NCBI GenBank assembly: GCA_900550295.1
Contig: URRM01000001.1
Span: 3,817 to 67,816, forward strand
Direction: 5' to 3'
DNA from: an uncultured bacterium
Lineage (GTDB): Bacteria; Cyanobacteriota; Vampirovibrionia; Gastranaerophilales; Gastranaerophilaceae
DNA: 64,000 bases
Made by a program: the position numbers and the translations under genes. Of the stretch, positions 2,648 to 24,705 are shown one piece after another. The notes beneath the pieces were generated by a model, which had not been told where the DNA came from, ran no database searches, and was given only the letters and a program-made list of their open reading frames with translations. Numbering within the stretch: position 1 is the stretch's first letter; the number at the start of each line of letters is the position of its first letter.

Positions 2648-3882
2648 AGTGCTAAAATACTTTCATAAACACCTTCTGAGTATGTTGGGTGAGCAAAGCA
2701 AACTTTGTGTAAATCTTTAATTGAGATTTCATTTTGCATTGCAATTGCAAACTCATGAATCATTGCTGATGCTTCTTTTGATATGATATGAGCGCCTATA
2801 ATTTTATCATCATATGATAAAACTTTAATAAATCCGTCAATATCGTTGTCACAATGAGCTTTACCTAAAGTTCTTACAGGTAAAACACTCTTTTTATAAC
2901 TTCCTACCGGTAAATCTTGCTCGTTTGCACCTATCCATGCAATTTCAGGAATACCGTAAACTACACTCGGAATAAACACATTATCAAAAGGAGTATCCGA
3001 CATCAAAGCTCTTGCCTGATACATTCCAAAATTAGCTAACATTAATTGTCCGCAAGCATCACCCAAGTAAATAACTTTGCCGTTTGCTACCGGTTTATTT
3101 GGAATTCTGCCGATTGCAACAAGTACAAAATCAGGTTCTAAAACTTCACCATTTGAAAGTGTTACTTTTTTATTTTCAATTTTTTCAACTGTTGTAGAAA
3201 GTTTCAAACCAATTTTACGCATTTTAAACATTCTTTCAACATATTTTGAAACTTCATCATCAGCAATTGAAAGAACCTTGTTAGTTGCTTCAATAACAGT
3301 TACATCCACATCTATGTCTTTAAAAATTCTTGCCCATTCAATACCTTCAGCACCTGCACCAATAATTACAACGCTTTTTGGTGCTTCTTTCATTTCAAAT
3401 AAATCATCCGAATTTAAAATAAATTCATGGTCATATTCTAAACATTTCAAAGCTTTTGGTTCAGAGCCTGTTGCCATTATAATTTTTTCGCAAATATAAG
3501 TTTCACCATTTGCTTCAATTGTTTTTTCTGCAATAACCTTAGCTTCATCTTCAACAATTTGCACACCTTTTGATTGCAAATTCTTTGTTAAAGCATTTCT
3601 TAGCATTTCAGTAACTTTATTTTTGCGCTCCATAACTTTTGCAAAATCAAATTTTACATCATTTGCTACAATACCAATATTTTCGGCATTTTTAACATCT
3701 TTATACAGTTCAGCCGAATGCATAATAGTTTTTGTTGGAATACAACCCTTGTTCAGGCAAACTCCGCCAATTTTATCTTTTTCAAAAAGTACAACTTTCA
3801 AGCCTTTTTCTGCTGCGAGTAAAGCAGCCGTAAAACCTGCAGGTCCTGAGCCTATAATCCCAAAATCAAATTTATTTTCCAT
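2644..3882 (-). CDS. lpdA: Dihydrolipoyl dehydrogenase-like FAD-dependent pyridine nucleotide-disulfide oxidoreductase
   Basis: GSGPAG FAD-binding start, redox-active disulfide motif GGVCLNKGCIPTK, second Rossmann GAGAEGIE, C-terminal HAHPTYSE. Overlaps lipA by 4 nt (operon). At 412 aa it is shorter than a typical LpdA. Confidence 0.7.
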   Translation of the reverse strand: MENKFDFGIIGSGPAGFTAALLAAEKGLKVVLFEKDKIGGVCLNKGCIPTKTIMHSAELYKDVKNAENIGIVANDVKFDFAKVMERKNKVTEMLRNALTKNLQSKGVQIVEDEAKVIAEKTIEANGETYICEKIIMATGSEPKALKCLEYDHEFILNSDDLFEMKEAPKSVVIIGAGAEGIEWARIFKDIDVDVTVIEATNKVLSIADDEVSKYVERMFKMRKIGLKLSTTVEKIENKKVTLSNGEVLEPDFVLVAIGRIPNKPVANGKVIYLGDACGQLMLANFGMYQARALMSDTPFDNVFIPSVVYGIPEIAWIGANEQDLPVGSYKKSVLPVRTLGKAHCDNDIDGFIKVLSYDDKIIGAHIISKEASAMIHEFAIAMQNEISIKDLHKVCFAHPTYSEGVYESILAL

Positions 3883-3891
3883 TTCAAATCC

Positions 3892-5016
3892 TTATCTTGT
3901 GTAAACTCTTGCAAGTCGAGCTTTCAAGTGGCAAATAATTTCGTAATGTATTGTACCCATTGCTTTTGCCCAATCATCAATAGGTAATGTTTCGTCAAGT
4001 AAAGTGATTACGTCACCAACTTTTGCATCAACACCCGTAATATCAAACATCATTTGATCCATTGCAACATTACCGACTTGTTTAACTTTTTGTCCGTTAA
4101 TATGTCCATAAAATTTATTAGACATTAATCTTGGAATGCCGTCAGCATAACCTAGAGGAACTGTCGCTATTTTTGTAGGTTTATCAGCAACAAAAGTATG
4201 TCCGTAGCTTACACCGTCACCTTTTTCAATTTCATGAATGTGTATAATTCTTGTTTTAACTGACATTGCTTGTTTCAAATTAACATGTTGTGCCTCAGAA
4301 ATTAAGTCAGGATATAATCCATACAAACCAATACCGCCACGAACCATATTATATGTGCATTTGTAGACATTGCTTGTAATAATACCGGCTGTATTCAAGA
4401 TATGAAGCAACAAACCGTCAGTATTAATTTGAGAAATTACATCCTCCCAAATCGCTAGTTGTTGTTCTGTCTTTTCTTTAATTTCAGCATTCGCTAAGTG
4501 TGAGAAAATACCCTTTAAATCAATGCATTCCATTGATTGAACTTTTTTAATAAATTCAACTGCGTCTTTGTGAGAAACACCTATTCTGTTCATGCCTGTA
4601 TCTAACTTAATATGAGCCTTTACAGGAATTTTTGTTCTTTCGTAAGTTTGAATACAAGATTCCAAGTGTTCTTCTGAAAAAATTGTAATAGTTAAATTGT
4701 TTTCAACAACCGTTGGTAATGCCCAAATTGGCGCTGCGCCAAGAATTAAAATTTCAGCGGTTACACCGTTTTCTCTTAAATTTAAAGCTTCATCAATTGA
4801 AGCAACACCAAACATATCTACACCTGATGCAAGCATTGTAGGAGCAAGCATTGCAGCACCGTGTCCGTAAGAATCTGCCTTAACTACTGCTAAGAACTTT
4901 TTATCTTGCGGTACACATTTTTTTAATTCTTTAATATTGTTAGAAACGTTATCAATATTGACTTCTACCCAAGAATCTCTATGAGCGTTTACATTTGATG
5001 TCCTTGAAATTTTCAT
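3892..5016 (-). CDS. alr: Alanine racemase
   Basis: PLP-lysine motif AVVKADSYGHG near the N-terminus. 374 aa with a typical two-domain length. Confidence 0.85.
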   Translation of the reverse strand: MKISRTSNVNAHRDSWVEVNIDNVSNNIKELKKCVPQDKKFLAVVKADSYGHGAAMLAPTMLASGVDMFGVASIDEALNLRENGVTAEILILGAAPIWALPTVVENNLTITIFSEEHLESCIQTYERTKIPVKAHIKLDTGMNRIGVSHKDAVEFIKKVQSMECIDLKGIFSHLANAEIKEKTEQQLAIWEDVISQINTDGLLLHILNTAGIITSNVYKCTYNMVRGGIGLYGLYPDLISEAQHVNLKQAMSVKTRIIHIHEIEKGDGVSYGHTFVADKPTKIATVPLGYADGIPRLMSNKFYGHINGQKVKQVGNVAMDQMMFDITGVDAKVGDVITLLDETLPIDDWAKAMGTIHYEIICHLKARLARVYTR

Positions 5017-6231: not shown

Positions 6232-7161
6232 TTAACCTTTAAAGTGTTCAATACCAGTTGCAACTAATGCAATTTCGTATTTATCACATTGTTCTATTAA
6301 TTTTTTATCATTAATAGAACCTGCCGGTTCAATAATTAACGCAATTCTACCTCTTGCTGCCGCATGAATTACATCAACAGTTTCTATAGCTCTATCTGTT
6401 GCCATAACAGCATCTTTTGTGCTGTCACATGCTGTATCCATTGCACCTTCGCAAGATTCAACAAACGATGTTTCACCTTGTCCGATTGCCAGTGTTTTAA
6501 AATCTTTTGCCAAAACAACTACATCTGATTTTGCATATTTTGCAACTTTAAACGCAAAAATTGCATCTTCCAATTGCTCTTGTTCAGGTTTCTTTTTTGT
6601 TAAAACTTTGAAAGTATCTTTATTAAAATCTGCTCTATCTGCATCTTGTTCCAAAACACCAAATGGAGTGATTTTTAACTCTTGCGATACAGAAATTCTT
6701 ACCTCATCAAAAGGTGTGTTGATTTTAATAACCTTCAAATTTTCGTTTTTCTTTAAAATTTCTAAAGCTTCTTTATCATATCCGCAAGCTAAAACAACTT
6801 CAAATTGGCTTTGGATAATTTTTTTTGCAGTTCTGTCATCAACAATTTTTGAAAAACCGATACAAGAACCAATTGCACCAATCGGATTGCTATCAACTGC
6901 TTTTGCATAAGAATCAACTAAAGTCTTACCCAAAGCAACCGCACAAGGTAAACCGACTTTTGCCATTACTGTTGCAAAAACATCGTAAAATTCACTCAAA
7001 ACATCAACTAAAACGCTCATGTTTAAGAAATTTTTGTATGTTAACTCGCCACCATTCAATTGTTCCCAATCAATTGATCCTTCATTTTTATATAAACAAG
7101 CTGATTGTTGTCTGTTTTCACCTTGTTTAAAATCAATTATTCTTTCTAAATTATCTAACAT
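6232..7161 (-). CDS. Standalone AICAR transformylase (PurH C-terminal AICARFT) domain protein
   Basis: C-terminus (AIFAFKVAKYAKSDVVVLAKDFKTLAIGQGETSFV...ATDRAIETVDVIHAAARGRIALIIEPAGSINDKKLIEQCDKYEIALVATGIEHFKG) matches the C-terminus of bacterial PurH as recalled from memory. A QGENRQQ segment matches YGENPHQ. No MGS-like IMP cyclohydrolase domain is present in this 309-aa ORF. Confidence 0.7.
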   Translation of the reverse strand: MLDNLERIIDFKQGENRQQSACLYKNEGSIDWEQLNGGELTYKNFLNMSVLVDVLSEFYDVFATVMAKVGLPCAVALGKTLVDSYAKAVDSNPIGAIGSCIGFSKIVDDRTAKKIIQSQFEVVLACGYDKEALEILKKNENLKVIKINTPFDEVRISVSQELKITPFGVLEQDADRADFNKDTFKVLTKKKPEQEQLEDAIFAFKVAKYAKSDVVVLAKDFKTLAIGQGETSFVESCEGAMDTACDSTKDAVMATDRAIETVDVIHAAARGRIALIIEPAGSINDKKLIEQCDKYEIALVATGIEHFKG

Positions 7162-7225
7162 CTTTATTTCCTTTTATTTATTAATTTTATCAGGGAAATT
7201 ATAGCACAAAAAGATTATTTAGAAA

Positions 7226-8170
7226 TTATTTGCAAGAGGTTTGAGTTTCCCAATTTAGAATTTTACCATTAGGACATTTATAAGTATCACCAGTTAGAGT
7301 TGCCTTTAAGTAGTCCATATTATTGTTTAAAATTACCCAACCCAGTAAATCCATATAAGATAAATTTCCTGTACTGCCACCACTAGAAAGATACTCAATT
7401 GCATAATTATTATTTTCATCATCAAATATACTAAATGTAAATAAATCAGAGCCTTCTTTTGTTTTACCTTTATTTGGACCATCAATATCTACATATATCA
7501 CAGACTGATCAAAAGACAATGATGTTCCATCGGCAAGAATCACATTATAGTAACCTGTATGAGAATCATCTAAATTAGATGCCATTTCACTACCATCATA
7601 ATAATAAGCTTTAGATTTAGAAGCACATCCTGTAGATAATTTACAATTTTTTGATACCTTCATAAATTCAGTCATTCTCTCGCCGAAACGAGTACTTATA
7701 TCTTCATAGTTAGTGAGTCCTGTAAACCATTCATCATATGGACCATAAACAGCTTGTGCACGCCCTAAAGCATCTTGTAGGTTTGAATATAGTTTCTTTA
7801 CTTTGGCTACTTTTTCTTTATCTGCAGTTGAAGAATTTAAGTTTGGAATAGTCAATGCCGCAACCACACCAATTATACCCATTACAATTAGGGTTTCTGC
7901 AAGGGTGAACGCTAAGGCTTTGCAAAGGGGTAGAATCCCTCTTTTGTCATCCCGTGCTTGACACGGGATCTTGTCAACATGAGATTCTGAACCAAGTTCA
8001 GAATGACATTGTGGTTTATGGCTTAATTGGGTAAACAGTCTTTGGATTGCTTCGCTTACGCTCGCAATGACGTCTTGAGTCTTAAGTCCAAAAGTCGCTC
8101 TACTACTAGTGTTTACCCCCCCCCCGCAAAGTTGAAGGGCTTTATTTTCAATGTTTTTATCCATATTCAT
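7226..8170 (-). CDS. Type IV pilin-like protein (prepilin-type N-terminal cleavage/methylation domain) with an atypical long repeat-derived N-terminal extension
   Basis: Class III signal motif KALA|FTLAETLIVMGIIGVVAAL (F+1, E+5) occurs about 85 aa into the ORF. Its C-terminal region ends with a Cys pair (..CPNGKILNWETQTSCK), typical of a pilin disulfide loop. The 5' 250 nt are built from palindromic repeat modules and a G10 tract. The most likely ATG is at 8162-8164 (RBS AGAGG), but the true start is uncertain. Confidence 0.6.
   Translation of the reverse strand: MNMDKNIENKALQLCGGGVNTSSRATFGLKTQDVIASVSEAIQRLFTQLSHKPQCHSELGSESHVDKIPCQARDDKRGILPLCKALAFTLAETLIVMGIIGVVAALTIPNLNSSTADKEKVAKVKKLYSNLQDALGRAQAVYGPYDEWFTGLTNYEDISTRFGERMTEFMKVSKNCKLSTGCASKSKAYYYDGSEMASNLDDSHTGYYNVILADGTSLSFDQSVIYVDIDGPNKGKTKEGSDLFTFSIFDDENNNYAIEYLSSGGSTGNLSYMDLLGWVILNNNMDYLKATLTGDTYKCPNGKILNWETQTSCK
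7945..8110. repeat. In-frame cluster of short palindromic repeat modules inside the pilin 5' region: hairpin module TGTCATCCCGTGCTTGACACGGGATC, perfect palindrome ATTCTGAACCAAGTTCAGAAT and module GTCATTGCGAGCGTAAGCGAAGCAATCCAAAGAC (inverted)
   Basis: The same modules recur at 8290-8316, 8478-8510, 18552-18579 and 18606-18625. Confidence 0.7.
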
Positions 8171-8269
8171 ACCTCTTATTTATTCTTATTATGTTTCTTA
8201 TTATAACATTCTTTGCTTGTTTCTTCAAGAGGGGTGGGTGAGGTTTGGATGGTTGGTAATATGTCGTAA

Positions 8270-8830
8270 TGACTTGAAATAAAACATACTGTCATCCCGT
8301 GCTACGACACGGGATCTTTTTTATACTCAATCGCTATTCAATAGATTCCGCATCAAGTTGACATAAAAGTAAATGTTCTCCTCTAATGTCATGCTAAAGT
8401 GTTTAATGTGTGCAATACAAGAACAACTTAGTTATTCCGCATCTGATAAACATTTCAACTACGTATTAAAACATAATGTCATTGCGAGCGGAAGCGTGGC
8501 AATCCAAGATTTTTTTAGATTACTTCGTCGTTTCACTCCTCGTAATGACATTAAAATTGAATTGCCAACCCTCTAAACATCTAAACCTCCAAAAGCGCAT
8601 TTGAACTGGTAAGATCCTGAATAAATGCGATTAATTTATTCTCTATTTAATCAATGTTTCAGGATGACATAGTATTGAAATTGTAACCCTAATGTCATAC
8701 TGAACTCGTTTCAGCATCTCATTCTTACTAACTCCTGCCACACGGGGGACAGGCTCACAAGGCTCATACTTCGCCTGTTCGCTTTGTCAAAAAATTCAGG
8801 ATGACATAAGGTTTAAACTTTTATCGGATA
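8270..8830. repeat. Intergenic mosaic of REP/MITE-like modules: hairpin TGTCATCCCGTGCTACGACACGGGATC+T-run at 8290-8322, a 52-nt module at 8431-8482, the GTCATTGCGAGCG..GCAATCCAAGA module at 8478-8510, and CAGGATGACAT / AATGTCAT cores at about 8395, 8660, 8700 and 8795
   Basis: Direct comparison with 18507-18585 shows a near-identical 52-nt module followed by an identical 28-nt hairpin and T-run. No ORF spans the region. Confidence 0.7.
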
Positions 8831-8850
8831 ACTGATAAGATTCTTAATTT

Positions 8851-9330
8851 TTAGAACGGGCAGATTGTCAAGCGTTCTAAAAATCTTACGGCACGAGTTG
8901 GAAGATTTTCATCAGGATTGATTGAACCTACCAAAATTGTCTTTGTACCTGCTAATTTGCCTACTAAAATATCTGTTAACGGTCTATCACCAATAACTAC
9001 AACGTGTTTTGGTTCCATAAACAAACCTTTGATTATTTGCTTAACTGTTTTTGTGCAAGGTTTGTTTGCATGAAAATATGTTTTACAAGGTGCTTGGTGT
9101 TCAACTTTTTCAATATATTCTTGATTTTTATTGTTTGAAACAATACACATATAAAAATCTTTTTTAAATTGATTAAACCAATCTATTGTCTTTCCTGAAA
9201 ATTCACCTGTTTTTGATTGCATTGTTGTGCTGTCTAAATCGATTAACATAGCCTTAATGCCCATATCTTTAAGCATTTCCGGCGTAATATCGTAAATATT
9301 TTTTAAGTTTTTATCAGGACGTAAAATCAT
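8851..9330 (-). CDS. HAD-superfamily phosphatase, YqeG-like (subfamily IIIA)
   Basis: Motif I DLDSTTM, downstream motif VVVIGDRPLTD, 159 aa. Confidence 0.6.
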   Translation of the reverse strand: MILRPDKNLKNIYDITPEMLKDMGIKAMLIDLDSTTMQSKTGEFSGKTIDWFNQFKKDFYMCIVSNNKNQEYIEKVEHQAPCKTYFHANKPCTKTVKQIIKGLFMEPKHVVVIGDRPLTDILVGKLAGTKTILVGSINPDENLPTRAVRFLERLTICPF

Positions 9331-10561
9331 CGTTTTTTATCTCCTTTGTTCTTGCAAGAGCAAATTTATAATTTTTTGGCGCTCGTTCAAATTTTATCCA
9401 TAATTCATCATTTGTATTGGCAACTTCTAACTCTTCTTTTGTTTTGTCACTTACAATTTCAGTTGCCTTCGTAATATATTGCTCGTCAGGTGTAATAATT
9501 TCAATTTCCTGACCTTTTAAAAATTTATTTTTTGTTTTTACTAAGTAACTATCGTCTTTCTTATCCCAAAATTCACACAAGAAATCAGCTCCCGCCAAAC
9601 CTTTTGAAATATCATAGCTGTAACTTTCCGAATTGTTATTTCCCAAATAGAAACCTTGAGTATAACCTCTGTTTCCAACTTTTTTAAGTTCTAAGAAATA
9701 TTTGTGCAAGTCATCAATTTTTCCTGCCATAACGTCATCAATAGCATTTCTATACGCCTTTGTTACGGCTGAAACATAATAAAGACTCTTTGTTCGACCT
9801 TCAATTTTTAATGAATCTACACCAGCTTCAATTAATTGAGGCAAGTATTCAACCAAACATAAATCTTTTGGGCTTAAAATGTGCGTACCACGTTCGTTTT
9901 GTTCAATTTCATAATATTGTCCCGGGCGAGTTTCTTCCAACAATTTGTAACTCCAACGGCAAGGTTGTGCACAATTTCCGTGGTTTGCTTGTCTTTCACC
10001 TTTTGTCATATAATCACTCAATAAGCATCTTCCTGAGAATGAAACACATTGAGAACCGTGTACAAAAACTTCCAATTCCATATCAGGAACTTGTTTTTTA
10101 ATTTCAGCAATATCTTTGATTGGTAACTCTCTTGCCAAAATCGCACGAGTTGCACCCATATCTTGCCAAAATTTAACTGCCTCATAATTTAATGTATTTG
10201 TTTGTGTGCTTATATGAATCGGAATATCTGGCAAATGTCTTTTTACCAAACGTAAAACACCCATATCTGTTAAAATAATTGCATCAGGATTAGCATCTTT
10301 AATTCTATCCATAACGCTTTCAAGCAATTTAATATCATTGTTGAACGCAAAAATATTAAGTGTCAAATAAGCCTTTGCACCTAAATTTCTTGCCATATCT
10401 ATTGCATCTTTAAGGTTTTCCATTGTAATTAATTCACCCTTACGCATAGCACGTAAGCTGAAATCTACAACACCCAAATATACTGCATCTGCACCGTATG
10501 TAACTGCATATTTTAATTTTTCAATATTGCCTGCCGGCATTAATAATTCTGGTTTGTTCAT
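9314..10561 (-). CDS. Peptidase U32 family protein (collagenase-like / RNA hydroxylase family)
   Basis: N-terminus ELLMPAGNIEKLKYAVTYGADAVYLG and U32 signature EVFVHGSQCVSFSGRCLLS. 415 aa. Confidence 0.8.
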   Translation of the reverse strand: MNKPELLMPAGNIEKLKYAVTYGADAVYLGVVDFSLRAMRKGELITMENLKDAIDMARNLGAKAYLTLNIFAFNNDIKLLESVMDRIKDANPDAIILTDMGVLRLVKRHLPDIPIHISTQTNTLNYEAVKFWQDMGATRAILARELPIKDIAEIKKQVPDMELEVFVHGSQCVSFSGRCLLSDYMTKGERQANHGNCAQPCRWSYKLLEETRPGQYYEIEQNERGTHILSPKDLCLVEYLPQLIEAGVDSLKIEGRTKSLYYVSAVTKAYRNAIDDVMAGKIDDLHKYFLELKKVGNRGYTQGFYLGNNNSESYSYDISKGLAGADFLCEFWDKKDDSYLVKTKNKFLKGQEIEIITPDEQYITKATEIVSDKTKEELEVANTNDELWIKFERAPKNYKFALARTKEIKNDDFTS

Positions 10562-11147: not shown

Positions 11148-12005
11148 TTAAAATGATGCTACAGGTTTCTTTTGTAATTGAGCACCTGGAATTTGTTGCC
11201 AGTTTGCAGACATGATTTTTTTGAATGATTTCAAAGCTGTATCTTCTAATTCACCTAGTTCATCAGCTTCCATAATTAATTCTCTTAAAGGAAGTAATGC
11301 TCTTTGGTCACGAAGAACGCCTAATGCTGCTGCTGCACCAGCTCTAACTAATTCGTTTTCTGAACGGTTTTTCATAACATCAATTAATGCAGGAACTGCT
11401 TTTGTATCATTTAATTTACCCAATGAAGTAACTGCATAAATTCTTACGTTAACCCATTCGTCATATAACATGTTGATTAATTTATCAACGGCTTTTTTAT
11501 TACCAATTTCACCCAATGCACGAGTTGCATCGCAACGTACATTAACTTTTTCGTGGTCTAATGAAGCAATTAAAGCATCTGTTGCAACATCACCAATTTC
11601 AATCAAAGCTTCAGTGGCTGTAATGCAAACTTGAGGGTTTTCATCATTTAAAGCTTCTACTAATGGCTCAACAACAATTTCGCCACCCAATCTGCCTAAT
11701 GCTCTAGCAGCACGAACTCTAACATCTACGTTTCTATCTTCTCGTAATGATTCAATCAAGTGAGTTGTTGCTTTTTCGTCACCCAATTCACCCAATGCAC
11801 GAGCTGCATATAAACGAACTGAACCATTTTTATCATTTTTCAATACGTCAATCAAAGGTTCTACGGCTTTTGATTCGCCCATTTCACCAAGAACTCTTGC
11901 TGCATTATATCTAACTTTTTCTGAGTTGCTTGTTCTCAAATCTGAAATTAATTCTTCAAATGTTTTTTTAACTTGTTTTTTCTTGCTATTTACGCTAATA
12001 GTCAT
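11148..12005 (-). CDS. HEAT-repeat (PBS lyase HEAT-like) protein
   Basis: About eight tandem repeats of VRxxAAxALGxxGxxxAVxPLIxxLxD. RBS GGAGG. Confidence 0.7.
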   Translation of the reverse strand: MTISVNSKKKQVKKTFEELISDLRTSNSEKVRYNAARVLGEMGESKAVEPLIDVLKNDKNGSVRLYAARALGELGDEKATTHLIESLREDRNVDVRVRAARALGRLGGEIVVEPLVEALNDENPQVCITATEALIEIGDVATDALIASLDHEKVNVRCDATRALGEIGNKKAVDKLINMLYDEWVNVRIYAVTSLGKLNDTKAVPALIDVMKNRSENELVRAGAAAALGVLRDQRALLPLRELIMEADELGELEDTALKSFKKIMSANWQQIPGAQLQKKPVASF

Positions 12006-15889: not shown

Positions 15890-15901
15890 AGACTATTAAG
15901 A

Positions 15902-16310
15902 CTACTTACATCTTGGGTTTTGTTCGGTTGGTGTTGTTCCGTTTGTACATTTACCACTTTTTAATTTTAAATAATCCATATTGTCGTAATTTATAATCCA
16001 ATCTGAAGTACAATATCCTTCGCCATTCACCTTTTGTAAAATGTAACTAAAGGTTCTATCATAACATTCTGTAGTAATACCTGAATCACTAATTAAAAAT
16101 CTAAAAATATCTTTACCAAATGCGGGCCTTTATTTTGGACATCAATATCTACTTCAATAACTTCAAACATAGCTTGAATCGGACATATCTCTACCTGAAG
16201 AAGAAGTTATTTTCTTTGGATAATAGCCTTGACCTGTTTGGACACAATCTCCAAAACGAACTACTTGAAATATACAAGGATGACGTAATAACCATTTTGT
16301 CATGTTGAAT
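15902..16310 (-). pseudogene. Frameshifted, 5'-truncated pilin paralogue remnant
   Basis: Minus-strand translation gives ..IEVDIDVQNKGP, a frameshift, then FGKDIFRFLISDSGITTECYDRTFSYILQKVNGEGYCTSDWIINYDNMDYLKLKSGKCTNGTTPTEQNPRCK*. This parallels the C-terminus of the 7226-8170 pilin (IYVDIDGPNKGKTKEGSDLFTFSIFDD...NNMDYLKATLTGDTYKCPNGK..TSCK*). No class III signal peptide remains. Confidence 0.5.
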
Positions 16311-18456: not shown

Positions 18457-18463
18457 TTTAAAA

Positions 18464-18498
18464 GTCGGATTTGATTTCATCAAATCCGACTATTTTTT
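18464..18498 (+). terminator. Rho-independent terminator of der
   Basis: GTCGGATTTGA-TTTCA-TCAAATCCGAC 11-bp stem followed by TATTTTTTCT. Confidence 0.85.
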
Positions 18499-18506
18499 CT
18501 AGCATT

Positions 18507-18625
18507 GTTATTCAGCATCTGATAAACATTCCAATGGCGCATTAAAATATAATGTCATCCCGTGCTACGACACGGGATCTTTTTTACACACAATTGCTTT
18601 TCAGGAGATTCTGAATTAAATTCAG
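18507..18625. repeat. Second copy of the composite REP/MITE-like element (52-nt module, then hairpin ATGTCATCCCGTGCTACGACACGGGATC with T-run, then GAGATTCTGAATTAAATTCAGG palindrome)
   Basis: 18507-18558 differs from 8431-8482 at only a few positions. 18552-18585 is identical to 8290-8322. Confidence 0.75.
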
Positions 18626-18636
18626 GGGTGTATATG

Positions 18637-24635: not shown

Positions 24636-24660
24636 TAGTTCATACGAACATAAAATTCCA

Positions 24661-24692
24661 AAAAAGGCGGTGATTTTATCACCGCCTTTTTA
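24661..24692. terminator. Bidirectional rho-independent terminator after groEL
   Basis: AAAAA-GGCGGTGAT-TTT-ATCACCGCC-TTTTT. Confidence 0.85.
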
Positions 24693-24705
24693 GTATTAAT
24701 TATTT

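Follow-up and report, generated by a model that had tools for sequence, protein, structure and literature searches.

Hairpin-forming repeats of the Ssn-related motif (SRM) and dRS3 type are among the most widespread bacterial repeats, and to our knowledge the only role tested so far for them is modulation of Neisseria meningitidis transformation. Here we analyse an array of such repeats in a 64-kb stretch of DNA (hereafter the window) from a human-gut Melainabacterium, probably a member of the Gastranaerophilales; its GroEL belongs to a 90% cluster that bears the name Candidatus Melainabacteria bacterium, and identical proteins are encoded on many human-gut metagenome contigs. The array lies upstream of a prepilin-like gene and continues into about 250 nt of its 5' coding region. 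With high confidence we assign the repeat family to the SRM/dRS3 class, also described as CGTC-tagged repetitive extragenic palindromic (REP) sequences. Its anatomy and a comparison of strains suggest that the hairpins probably act as recombination joints around a pilin-like cassette. Repeats of this kind have been described before; what is new is the lineage of the host and a tie to prepilin leaders that extends across the family.

The Neisseria Transformation Sequence (NTS), CGTCATTCCCGCGMAVGCGGGAATCYRG, contains dRS3, and a general pattern for Ssn-related motifs was defined in the same study (Chenal et al. 2025, Nat Commun 16:2388; PMC11893778). SsnA is a single-domain GIY-YIG protein of 94 aa that binds the hairpin exclusively in the form of single-stranded DNA (ssDNA) and cuts it a few bases upstream; cutting depends critically on the three bases that precede the palindrome, and binding on the C that follows it. 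Neisseria SsnA does not act on RNA (PMC11893778). The same super-family had been described as CGTC-tagged REPs, among which dRS3 is CGTC-1 and the Rickettsia palindromic elements (RPE) RPE-4 and RPE-6 are also counted (Di Nocera et al. 2013, BMC Genomics 14:522; PMC3733652). These REPs form dimers, have heterogeneous stems and no dedicated transposase, and are reported from five phyla, Cyanobacteria/Melainabacteria not being listed; some reside inside open reading frames (ORFs), often N-terminally, where clusters of them encode 43–82 aa (PMC3733652).

The repeats of the window resemble the SRM/NTS-Ssn system in the GTC(A/T)(C/T) head, the palindrome and the C right after the stem (the published pattern is matched exactly by three copies), in the clustering of copies near a variable surface-appendage gene, and in the presence of the identical hairpin beside Ssn-like genes of other phyla. 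They differ from it in several respects: no ssn gene was found for this organism in the loci searched, most stems are AT-richer or weaker and fail the pattern, some loops are 36–60 nt long, the host is a Melainabacterium, and the arrays are read as a prepilin leader. With CGTC-tagged REPs they share short (C)GTC-tagged stem-loops that are mostly dimers, mixed stems, the lack of a dedicated transposase and the presence of copies in ORFs, whereas the base before GTC is here usually A or T (AATGTCAT), with C in the minority.

A single palindromic unit underlies the array

All modules of the array reduce to one unit (GTC / AT-stem-loop-stem'-AT / C). When both strands are read, the palindromes always begin and end with A-T pairs, with GTC before and C after them, and the stems vary between units with compensating changes in both arms (CCCGTG/CACGGG, TCTGAAC/GTTCAGA, CCTGAA/TTCAGG, TGC/GCA, TAC/GTA). 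GTC does not vary among the units, and the base before it is C in the unit at 8045–8071 (GACGTCAT) and A or T in most others. A search of both strands of the window for GTCAT, stem, loop, complementary stem and ATC (the unit finder) returned nine convincing units, eight in 7946–8668 and one at 18554, along with five chance-like, AT-only matches elsewhere in the window. Two more units, both imperfect, are found at 8694–8718 and 8731–8805. The units at 7983–8007 (-), 8518–8549 (-), 8613–8668 (-), 8694–8718 (+) and 8731–8805 (-) extend the set listed in the initial annotation of this DNA. The elements are given below, with folding energies and z-scores for units folded as ssDNA and compared with shuffled sequences; L-numbers denote compared loci or contigs from other genomes or metagenomes.

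7946..7970, plus strand: hairpin unit GTCAT-CCCGTG-CTTGA-CACGGG-ATC; matches the SRM pattern; -8.6 kcal/mol, z = -5.0; inside the leader-coding part of the pilin-like ORF, the minus strand reading ..KIPCQARDD..
7983..8007, minus strand: hairpin unit GTCAT-TCTGAAC-TTG-GTTCAGA-ATC; unit finder; -6.5 kcal/mol, z = -4.4; tail-to-tail with the 7946 unit; translation CHSELGSES
8045..8071, minus strand: unit (C)GTCAT-TGC-GAGCGTAAGCGAA-GCA-ATC; weak 5-bp stem, z = -0.5, no better than shuffles; translation VIASVSEAIQ
8291..8322, plus strand: hairpin unit GTCAT-CCCGTG-CTACGA-CACGGG-ATC followed by T6; SRM pattern and terminator scan; z = -3.7; direct repeat of the 7946 unit
8346..8366, minus strand: decayed inverted partner of the 8291 unit, GATTCCGCATCAAGT-TGACAT; intact form in L153, L154, L164 and L200
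8388..8443, plus strand: decayed large-loop unit GTCAT-GCTAAA...TTCCGC-ATC, whose 3' arm opens the 52-nt module; intact relatives, GTCAT-GCTGAA...TTCAGC-ATC, correspondingly placed in L164 and L200
8431..8482, plus strand: 52-nt module, made up of the previous unit's 3' arm, a spacer and AATGTCAT, the next unit's head; second copy at 18507–18558
8478..8504, plus strand: unit GTCAT-TGC-GAGCGGAAGCGTG-GCA-ATC; unit finder; weak fold
8518..8549, minus strand: unit GTCAT-TAC-GAGGAGTGAAACGACGAA-GTA-ATC; unit finder; tail-to-tail with the 8478 unit; no stable fold predicted
8613..8668, minus strand: large-loop unit GTCAT-CCTGAA-(36 nt)-TTCAGG-ATC; unit finder; -6.5 kcal/mol, z = -2.1
8694..8718, plus strand: imperfect unit GTCAT-ACTGAAC-TCG-TTTCAGC-ATC; head-to-head with the 8613–8668 unit; z = -2.3
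8731..8805, minus strand: long unit GTCAT-CCTG-(conserved insert of ~60 nt, TTGACAAAGCGAACAGGCGAAGTATGAGCCTTGTGAGCCTGTCCCCCGTGTGG)-CAGG-AGT; compensating closing stems
18507..18585, plus strand: second locus, with a copy of the module, hairpin GTCATCCCGTGCTACGACACGGGATC and T6, 3' of der and of the der terminator (18463–18491)
18607..18626, minus strand: decayed inverted partner of the 18554 unit, GATTCTGAATTAAATTCAGG..

The CCCGTG, TCTGAAC and CCTGAA units are strong ssDNA folders (z = -2.1 to -5.0), and those of the TGC and TAC types fold weakly (z = -0.5 to +1.7). Most units are arranged as inverted pairs (7946/8007, 8478/8549, 8668/8694) that are linked by spacers into a mosaic array, and intact doublets are seen in L153, L154, L164 and L200. 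In related genomes the 8291-type unit is followed by a conserved spacer of 28 nt and then by GAT-CCCGCA-TCAAG-TGCGGG-ATGACAT, which has decayed in the window.

The modules that the initial annotation had listed were all recovered where it placed them, and they exceed chance by far, as judged from shuffles and expected counts. The 26-mer GTCATCCCGTGCTACGACACGGGATC occurs exactly at 8291–8316 and 18554–18579 (none in 100 shuffles), with a CTTGA-loop variant of the hairpin at 7946–7970. GTCATTGCGAGCG.AAGCG..GCAATCC is found at 8478–8505 (+) and 8044–8071 (-), the 30-nt arms being 90% complementary, and the two copies of the module of ~52 nt (8431–8482, 18507–18558) are 83% identical over 59 nt. 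TTCAGRATGACAT has four copies against 0.33 expected, all of them within 7997–8807, and 11 copies of GTCAT/ATGAC stand in 7945–8830, for which the rest of the window would predict 1.43 (Poisson P about 4e-7). The recurring cores that had been pointed out, AATGTCAT and CAGGATGACAT, are the head of the unit as read on either strand, and they do cluster as such; over the whole window, however, AATGTCAT is only weakly enriched (10 against 5.6 expected), and it is the clustering that matters, not the whole-window count. A DNA uptake sequence was ruled out, AATGTCAT not being enriched outside the clusters. The 52-nt module is not an element of its own: it begins with the 3' arm that is left of a decayed large-loop unit, continues with a spacer and finishes with the following unit's head, a composition made plain by intact relatives in L164 and L200.

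The published SRM pattern, HGTCWYN(0-2)YYVSBRHN(0-5)WNVSBRGN(0-2)RNCYNB (PMC11893778), matches the window three times (7945, 8290 and 18553) against 0.02 matches expected from 100 dinucleotide shuffles. The GTC head, the A-T pairs and the C tail were derived from the window independently of that study and coincide with its critical positions (PMC11893778). None of the units carries the GTAG tag, and the Pfam tables, which cover the window to about 61.7 kb, contain no Y1 transposase family, so that the array does not qualify as a REP/REPIN system served by REP-associated tyrosine transposases (RAYTs); transposase, integrase and GIY-YIG families are likewise missing from these tables. Integron attC sites were also considered and set aside: the flanks differ from the attC R-box, the same tables list no integrase, and ten consecutive hairpins without ORFs are unlike cassette arrays. 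A tRNA scan of the window found none, hence no tRNA-linked island.

Could the hairpins act mainly in RNA, as terminators, attenuators or mRNA stabilisers for der, the HAD phosphatase gene and the pilin-like gene? The plus-strand copies at 8294–8315 and 18557–18578 do have T6 and pass a terminator scan, as the initial annotation had proposed, and REPs elsewhere stabilise or terminate transcripts (PMC3733652). These are two of about twelve units, however, the roughly ten others having no T-run. The 8294 copy is on the plus strand, opposite to all of its neighbours (the AICARFT, pilin-like, HAD and U32 genes, all on the minus strand), and the 18557 copy, the only one of the two that is placed 3' of a gene on its own strand, stands behind a 13-bp-stem terminator that der has of its own right after its stop codon. 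In addition, the conserved GTC head and C tail are irrelevant to termination, and Neisseria SsnA is inactive on RNA. No Rfam family matched the window at gathering thresholds, and when the cut-off for 7800–8900 was relaxed to E up to 1, the sole hit was a miRNA family matched by chance, at 21 bits where the gathering score is 100. Termination may thus occur at the T6 copies but cannot explain the repeat family, and a primary role in RNA is improbable.

The long leader of the pilin-like gene and its poly-G tract

The array is enclosed, together with the pilin-like ORF, between the genes for the HAD phosphatase (8851–9330, minus strand) and AICARFT (6232–7161, minus strand). The gene and its control elements are:

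7226..8170, minus strand: prepilin-like gene of 314 aa; predicted leader of residues 1–86, with A|FTLAETLIVMGIIGVVAAL from residue 87
8116..8125, minus strand: poly-G(10) tract (poly-C on the plus strand), 13 codons past the start codon
8200..8228, minus strand: promoter-like site TTGAAG-N17-(TG)TATAAT, the best sigma-70-type match in 7000–9500 (10/12 positions)

Class III signals consist of a short basic leader with G or A at -1, F at +1, E at +5 and a hydrophobic helix. A|FTLAETLIVMGIIGVVAAL is present in the protein, and residues 87–139 (AFTLAETLIVMGIIGVVAAL...) match the N-termini of the ComGE, ComGC, GspG and PilA models, all below curated cut-offs. The region after the cleavage motif has 2170 homologues, some of them named type II secretion system protein or Candidatus Melainabacteria. 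The peculiarity of the protein is its leader, 86 aa long against the usual 6–30 aa or so, while relatives with canonical leaders exist; we know of no precedent for a prepilin leader of 86 residues. It is made up of a start module, the poly-G tract and three units (8045–8071, 7983–8007 and 7946–7970), and ends at A|FTLAE. The initial annotation was therefore correct in placing copies of the repeat inside a coding region, namely in the 5' part of the ORF at 7226–8170.

One might object that these units are non-coding, that the gene is a pseudogene or has an unusual start just before FTLAE, and that the frame is open by accident in stop-poor repeats. Each unit is indeed free of stops in two of the three frames by its own sequence, and substitutions among leader alleles are mostly non-synonymous; gene callers, moreover, gave products of 218–301 aa for alleles with a shorter tract (G9, see below), and the leader is without the precedent just mentioned. 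Yet the 83-codon leader has no stop in its own frame, compared to 4 and 11 in the other two, and just 0.6% of its shuffles are open, while the intergenic array, which is built from the same units, has 11–23 stops in every frame. The promoter-like site (conserved in the paralogous cassette of L004), a ribosome-binding site, AAGAGG, and the ATG codons at 8170/8164 that it precedes are all upstream of the tract, and no in-frame ATG, GTG or TTG is present between the tract and FTLAE. Furthermore, dozens of homologues carry arrays that differ from one another and are nevertheless open from the conserved start module to FTLAE. We consequently give the non-coding explanation little credence.

Among the best 120 of the 2170 homologues, which were inspected for their leaders, 23 have canonical ones (e.g. 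MKKLLAFTLAET, MKKIQKLLAFTLAET) and about 80 have extensions of 40–142 aa that are translated units, recognisable by peptides such as LCHSELVSES, CHPEFSSGSQ..MLKQVQHDN, VIASVSEAIQ, IPCQARDD and RFRNKFGMT. Most of the unit-bearing extensions come after a conserved start module with a G-run. L233 and L234 form a clean empty/filled pair: their flanks are near-identical, and the leader of L234 contains a 78-nt (26-codon) doublet between AAGAAAT and TTGAAAAAAGCC. The ends of this insert are imperfectly inverted (about 9/12) and a target duplication (AAAT?) is ambiguous. Such insertions would be tolerated in the leader since it would remain cytoplasmic and be removed at A|F by prepilin peptidase. Palindromic elements inserted in frame in protein-coding genes are known from Rickettsia as RPEs (PMC10969869), and the CCCGTG hairpin pattern itself is found in several Rickettsia genomes. 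In contrast to RPEs, which measure about 100–150 bp and reside in many unrelated housekeeping genes, the elements described here are units of 25–80 nt that, within the window, enter only the presumably cleavable leader of a single gene family; the in-frame cases comprise the three units of the ORF at 7226–8170 and the 26-codon insert of the homologue.

The length of the tract differs between alleles. It is G10, with the frame open, in the window, L008, L006 and L161, whereas in L001–L003 it is G9 and a TAA follows directly after it, the alleles being otherwise identical; L004 has an interrupted tract, GTG8, which is in frame. The tract would thus be expected to gate the pilin-like gene as a frame switch, in the manner typical of slipped-strand phase variation, of which we know no description in Melainabacteria. 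In L218, from another species, two ATGs in different frames precede the tract and G9 also gives an open frame. There (10001–10075) one start reads MKNKEK.. and the other, behind AAGGAG, MAESIENK.., two of the three phases of the tract being open; the phases may perhaps give different levels of expression.

Pilin cassettes and their probable joints among strains

Ten contigs of one species, 99.2–99.9% identical, were aligned to positions 1–19.3 kb of the window. They are collinear with it except at pilin or repeat sites, that is, at 7193–8845, at 15990–16306, beyond 18609 and inside the pilin gene; further along, at 40–62 kb, four strains show no structural variation. The segment 7193–8845, comprising the pilin gene and the array, is missing from six contigs, in which only the long unit is kept, in a spacer of 181 nt. 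At 15990–16306, L004 and L006 have a full cassette that shares the promoter and all three leader units, where the window has a remnant:

15898..16306, minus strand: decayed 3' fragment of a pilin-like gene, ending in ..NMDYLKLKSGKCTNGTTPTEQNPRCK and a stop; complete cassette at this site in L004 and L006

Beyond 18609, next to the der-side copy of the repeat, a pilin cassette is present in L005, L007 and L161; the der-side copy itself (18507..18585) is present in all strains examined. Breakpoints within the pilin gene were found in L003 and L008. In L143 the 5' end of the pilin gene is joined, at a hairpin with the CTACGA loop, to the flank that follows 8316, which corresponds to a deletion of 7971–8290, as recombination of the 7946 copy with its direct repeat at 8291 would be expected to yield. 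The deletion takes out the promoter, the start codon and the tract.

This organisation recalls the Neisseria intergenic mosaic elements (NIMEs), repeat arrays bounded by dRS3, which occur near pilin, opa and other surface-protein genes. Both are mosaics of short repeats and dRS3-type hairpins that adjoin a strain-variable gene, with recombination breakpoints at the hairpins. The likeness is one of organisation, and unlike NIMEs the present array enters the coding region.

Two details of these sites may be added. The 15898–16306 fragment has frameshifts upstream, and ATGAC and GTCAT heads stand at its junction (16280–16305). The long unit, which persists without a pilin gene and in another species, has closing stems that read CCTG/CAGG, TCCG/CGGA or TCTG/CAGA across strains and species. 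Its segment of ~60 nt, TTGACAAAGCGAACAGGCGAAGTATGAGCCTTGTGAGCCTGTCCCCCGTGTGG (8738–8797, minus strand), begins with a perfect TTGACA, has no Rfam match, and is also found in L004 (10500–10570), L161 and L218 (9860–9930), being kept even where no pilin gene follows.

Distribution of the hairpin and its possible partner

In order to see how far the CCCGTG hairpin is distributed, species-representative genomes were scanned with GTCATCCCGTG-N(3-8)-CACGGGATC, which retrieved at least 119 stretches across phyla. The matches listed include Rickettsia, Bacteroidota, Thermoanaerobaculia, a metagenome-assembled genome (MAG) of Defluviitaleaceae (Firmicutes), Patescibacteria, Gammaproteobacteria and two Gastranaerophilales MAGs, and the commonest loops among them are those of the window itself, CTTGA (50) and CTACGA (18). 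The exact 26-mer was also met in 85 metagenome stretches, and related genomes carry further copies at other loci (L145, L154, L163, L164, L181 and L200). The repeats thus form a dispersed, modular family of small palindromes, as had been proposed, and the purely local duplication that the initial annotation had named as its refutation does not apply. They were also held to be diagnostic of this genome and useful for its taxonomic placement; because base-identical copies with the same loops occur across phyla, the hairpin is not diagnostic of a taxon and has no taxonomic value. In L136, L149 and L172, from human-gut and other metagenomes, the exact 26-mer lies ~156 nt upstream of a different pilin-like gene (MKKLFAFSLAEVL..), so that hairpin and pilin are also found together beyond the gene family analysed here.

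In the loci retrieved by the scan, and in the 85 metagenome stretches with the exact 26-mer, small ORFs that adjoin the hairpin encode GIY-YIG domains (Pfam). In other phyla, small genes with GIY-YIG as their single domain stand right beside the identical hairpin in L076, L042, L170, L184, L203, L182 and L232, and the Ssn-like GIY-YIG family has at least 7986 members of about 95–105 aa. L232, on a contig of 40% G+C that is no Melainabacterium, is the canonical case of a hairpin-ssn-hairpin arrangement: a 25-mer identical to positions 7946–7970 of the window is found 15 nt before a GIY-YIG gene and an inverted copy 8 nt after it. L232 has two small GIY-YIG genes (3796–4379 and 9961–10327), each bracketed by its own type of hairpin, CCCGCA and CCCGTG respectively, and the same two types also stand side by side in Melainabacterial doublets.

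These neighbours bear on the possibility that the units and their inverted doublets are selfish miniature transposons, akin to miniature transposable elements with inverted repeats (MITEs) or to REPINs, which a transposase encoded elsewhere, e.g. a RAYT of the IS200/IS605 type, would copy, their position at pilin genes reflecting tolerance only. The 78-nt polymorphism in near-identical flanks is clean, the inverted-head doublets of 66–110 nt and the dispersal of the same composite at unrelated sites would suit such elements, and the units do not code for anything by themselves. REPs, bacterial interspersed mosaic elements and REPIN-RAYT systems equally comprise short extragenic palindromes, inverted doublets and mosaic clusters. 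These systems, however, have a GTAG tag and an associated RAYT gene, neither of which was found here: the tag is GTC..C, and no RAYT or other transposase was detected in the window or in related loci, in agreement with the initial annotation as far as the window is concerned. CGTC-tagged REPs are in any case reported without a dedicated transposase (PMC3733652). The genes that the identical hairpin directly flanks encode GIY-YIG nucleases rather than transposases, and the sole clean insertion has the ambiguous target-site duplication noted above. We therefore find transposition of this kind unlikely, and of the REP/MITE label that had been given to the repeats the appearance stands, while the specific class is SRM/CGTC-REP (dRS3/NTS), whose known partner is a GIY-YIG ssDNA nuclease, not a transposase.

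The explanation that we favour, and consider reasonably probable, is that the hairpins are recombination joints around a poly-G-gated pilin-like cassette, with cutting of the Ssn type, and that their translated copies are filler in the leader. This working model draws on the anatomy of the locus, the strain comparison and the Neisseria precedent. A unit that becomes single-stranded during replication, repair or DNA uptake would fold into a hairpin and be bound by a small Ssn-family nuclease of the GIY-YIG type, the gene for which would lie in another part of the genome. The nuclease would read the C after the stem and cut a few bases 5' of GTC, as for Neisseria SsnA. Through the breaks and the short sequences that they share, the units could then act as recombination joints at which promoter/start modules and pilin cassettes would be gained, lost, moved or deleted between strains. 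Units would settle in leader-coding DNA, where an open frame would be the sole need, the leader being cytoplasmic and removed by prepilin peptidase. Slippage in the poly-G tract that follows the start codon would gate expression separately, and the two copies with a T-run might also terminate plus-strand transcription as a side effect.

Several points weigh against this model. Only the CCCGTG units fit the SRM pattern, roughly nine others failing it because their stems are AT-richer, and the TGC and TAC types are weak hairpins. A cognate single-domain GIY-YIG gene (Ssn, cd10448) in the same genome, often with the motif at its flanks, is characteristic of SRMs; the 64-kb window, L001–L010 and the related loci yielded neither a GIY-YIG/Ssn gene nor one for a transposase or recombinase. 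Searches for GIY-YIG proteins by regular expression, phmmer and an unfiltered purpose-built hidden Markov model (HMM) among all ORFs of 30 aa or more in the whole window and in 27 related loci, which amount to a small fraction of this organism's genome, gave a best E of 1.7, and a profile search of a large protein database that returned the at least 7986 Ssn-like proteins had no Melainabacterial name among the 120 listed. That no ssn gene was found for this organism in these searches is the main gap, and Ssn is a putative partner in this lineage. Translation and cleavage of the long leader are deduced from sequence, and its mostly non-synonymous substitutions leave no constraint on the peptide visible. 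The tract lengths and the L143 junction represent the consensus of metagenome assemblies, not reads. Finally, the GroEL/YkuD site has a fourth pilin cassette that varies between strains, and this one is free of repeats and has a leader of canonical form; turnover of cassettes hence does not require repeats, and the notion that all strain variation is at repeats was ruled out.

The GroEL/YkuD spacer (24636–24705) is empty in the window. In L220, L222 and L224–L227 it carries the pilin-like gene (MAKKNAFTLAET..), at about 3430–4305, and in these six strains the cassette also has an ORF of 39 aa resembling a ribbon-helix-helix protein.

More tentatively, it is conceivable that gut Melainabacteria recruited SRM hairpins as building blocks of pilin variation, serving both as joints, at which modules for promoter, start and poly-G would be shuffled, deleted or carried along with pilin cassettes from one chromosomal site to another, and as leader filler, and that hairpin-directed cutting of ssDNA, by an Ssn-type nuclease in DNA uptake or in the course of repair, drives the diversity of surface appendages in a commensal. 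If true, this would parallel NIME/NTS and the pilin variation of pathogenic Neisseria in a distant phylum, and the locus would be a second natural system, from an uncultured member of the human gut, in which the hairpins coincide with strain-level pilin rearrangement. Should these leaders actually be produced and processed, they would exceed all known prepilin leaders in length and would explain how repeat insertions are absorbed in a coding region. For annotation there is a warning here: hundreds of "long" Melainabacterial pilin proteins in databases have translated repeats as their N-termini.

The window has one further repeat, at 11398–11830, where three diverged copies of 61 nt are spaced at multiples of 93 nt inside the ORF at 11148–12005 (minus strand). 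The ORF encodes 285 aa without a Pfam family, and the copies presumably represent an internal protein repeat.

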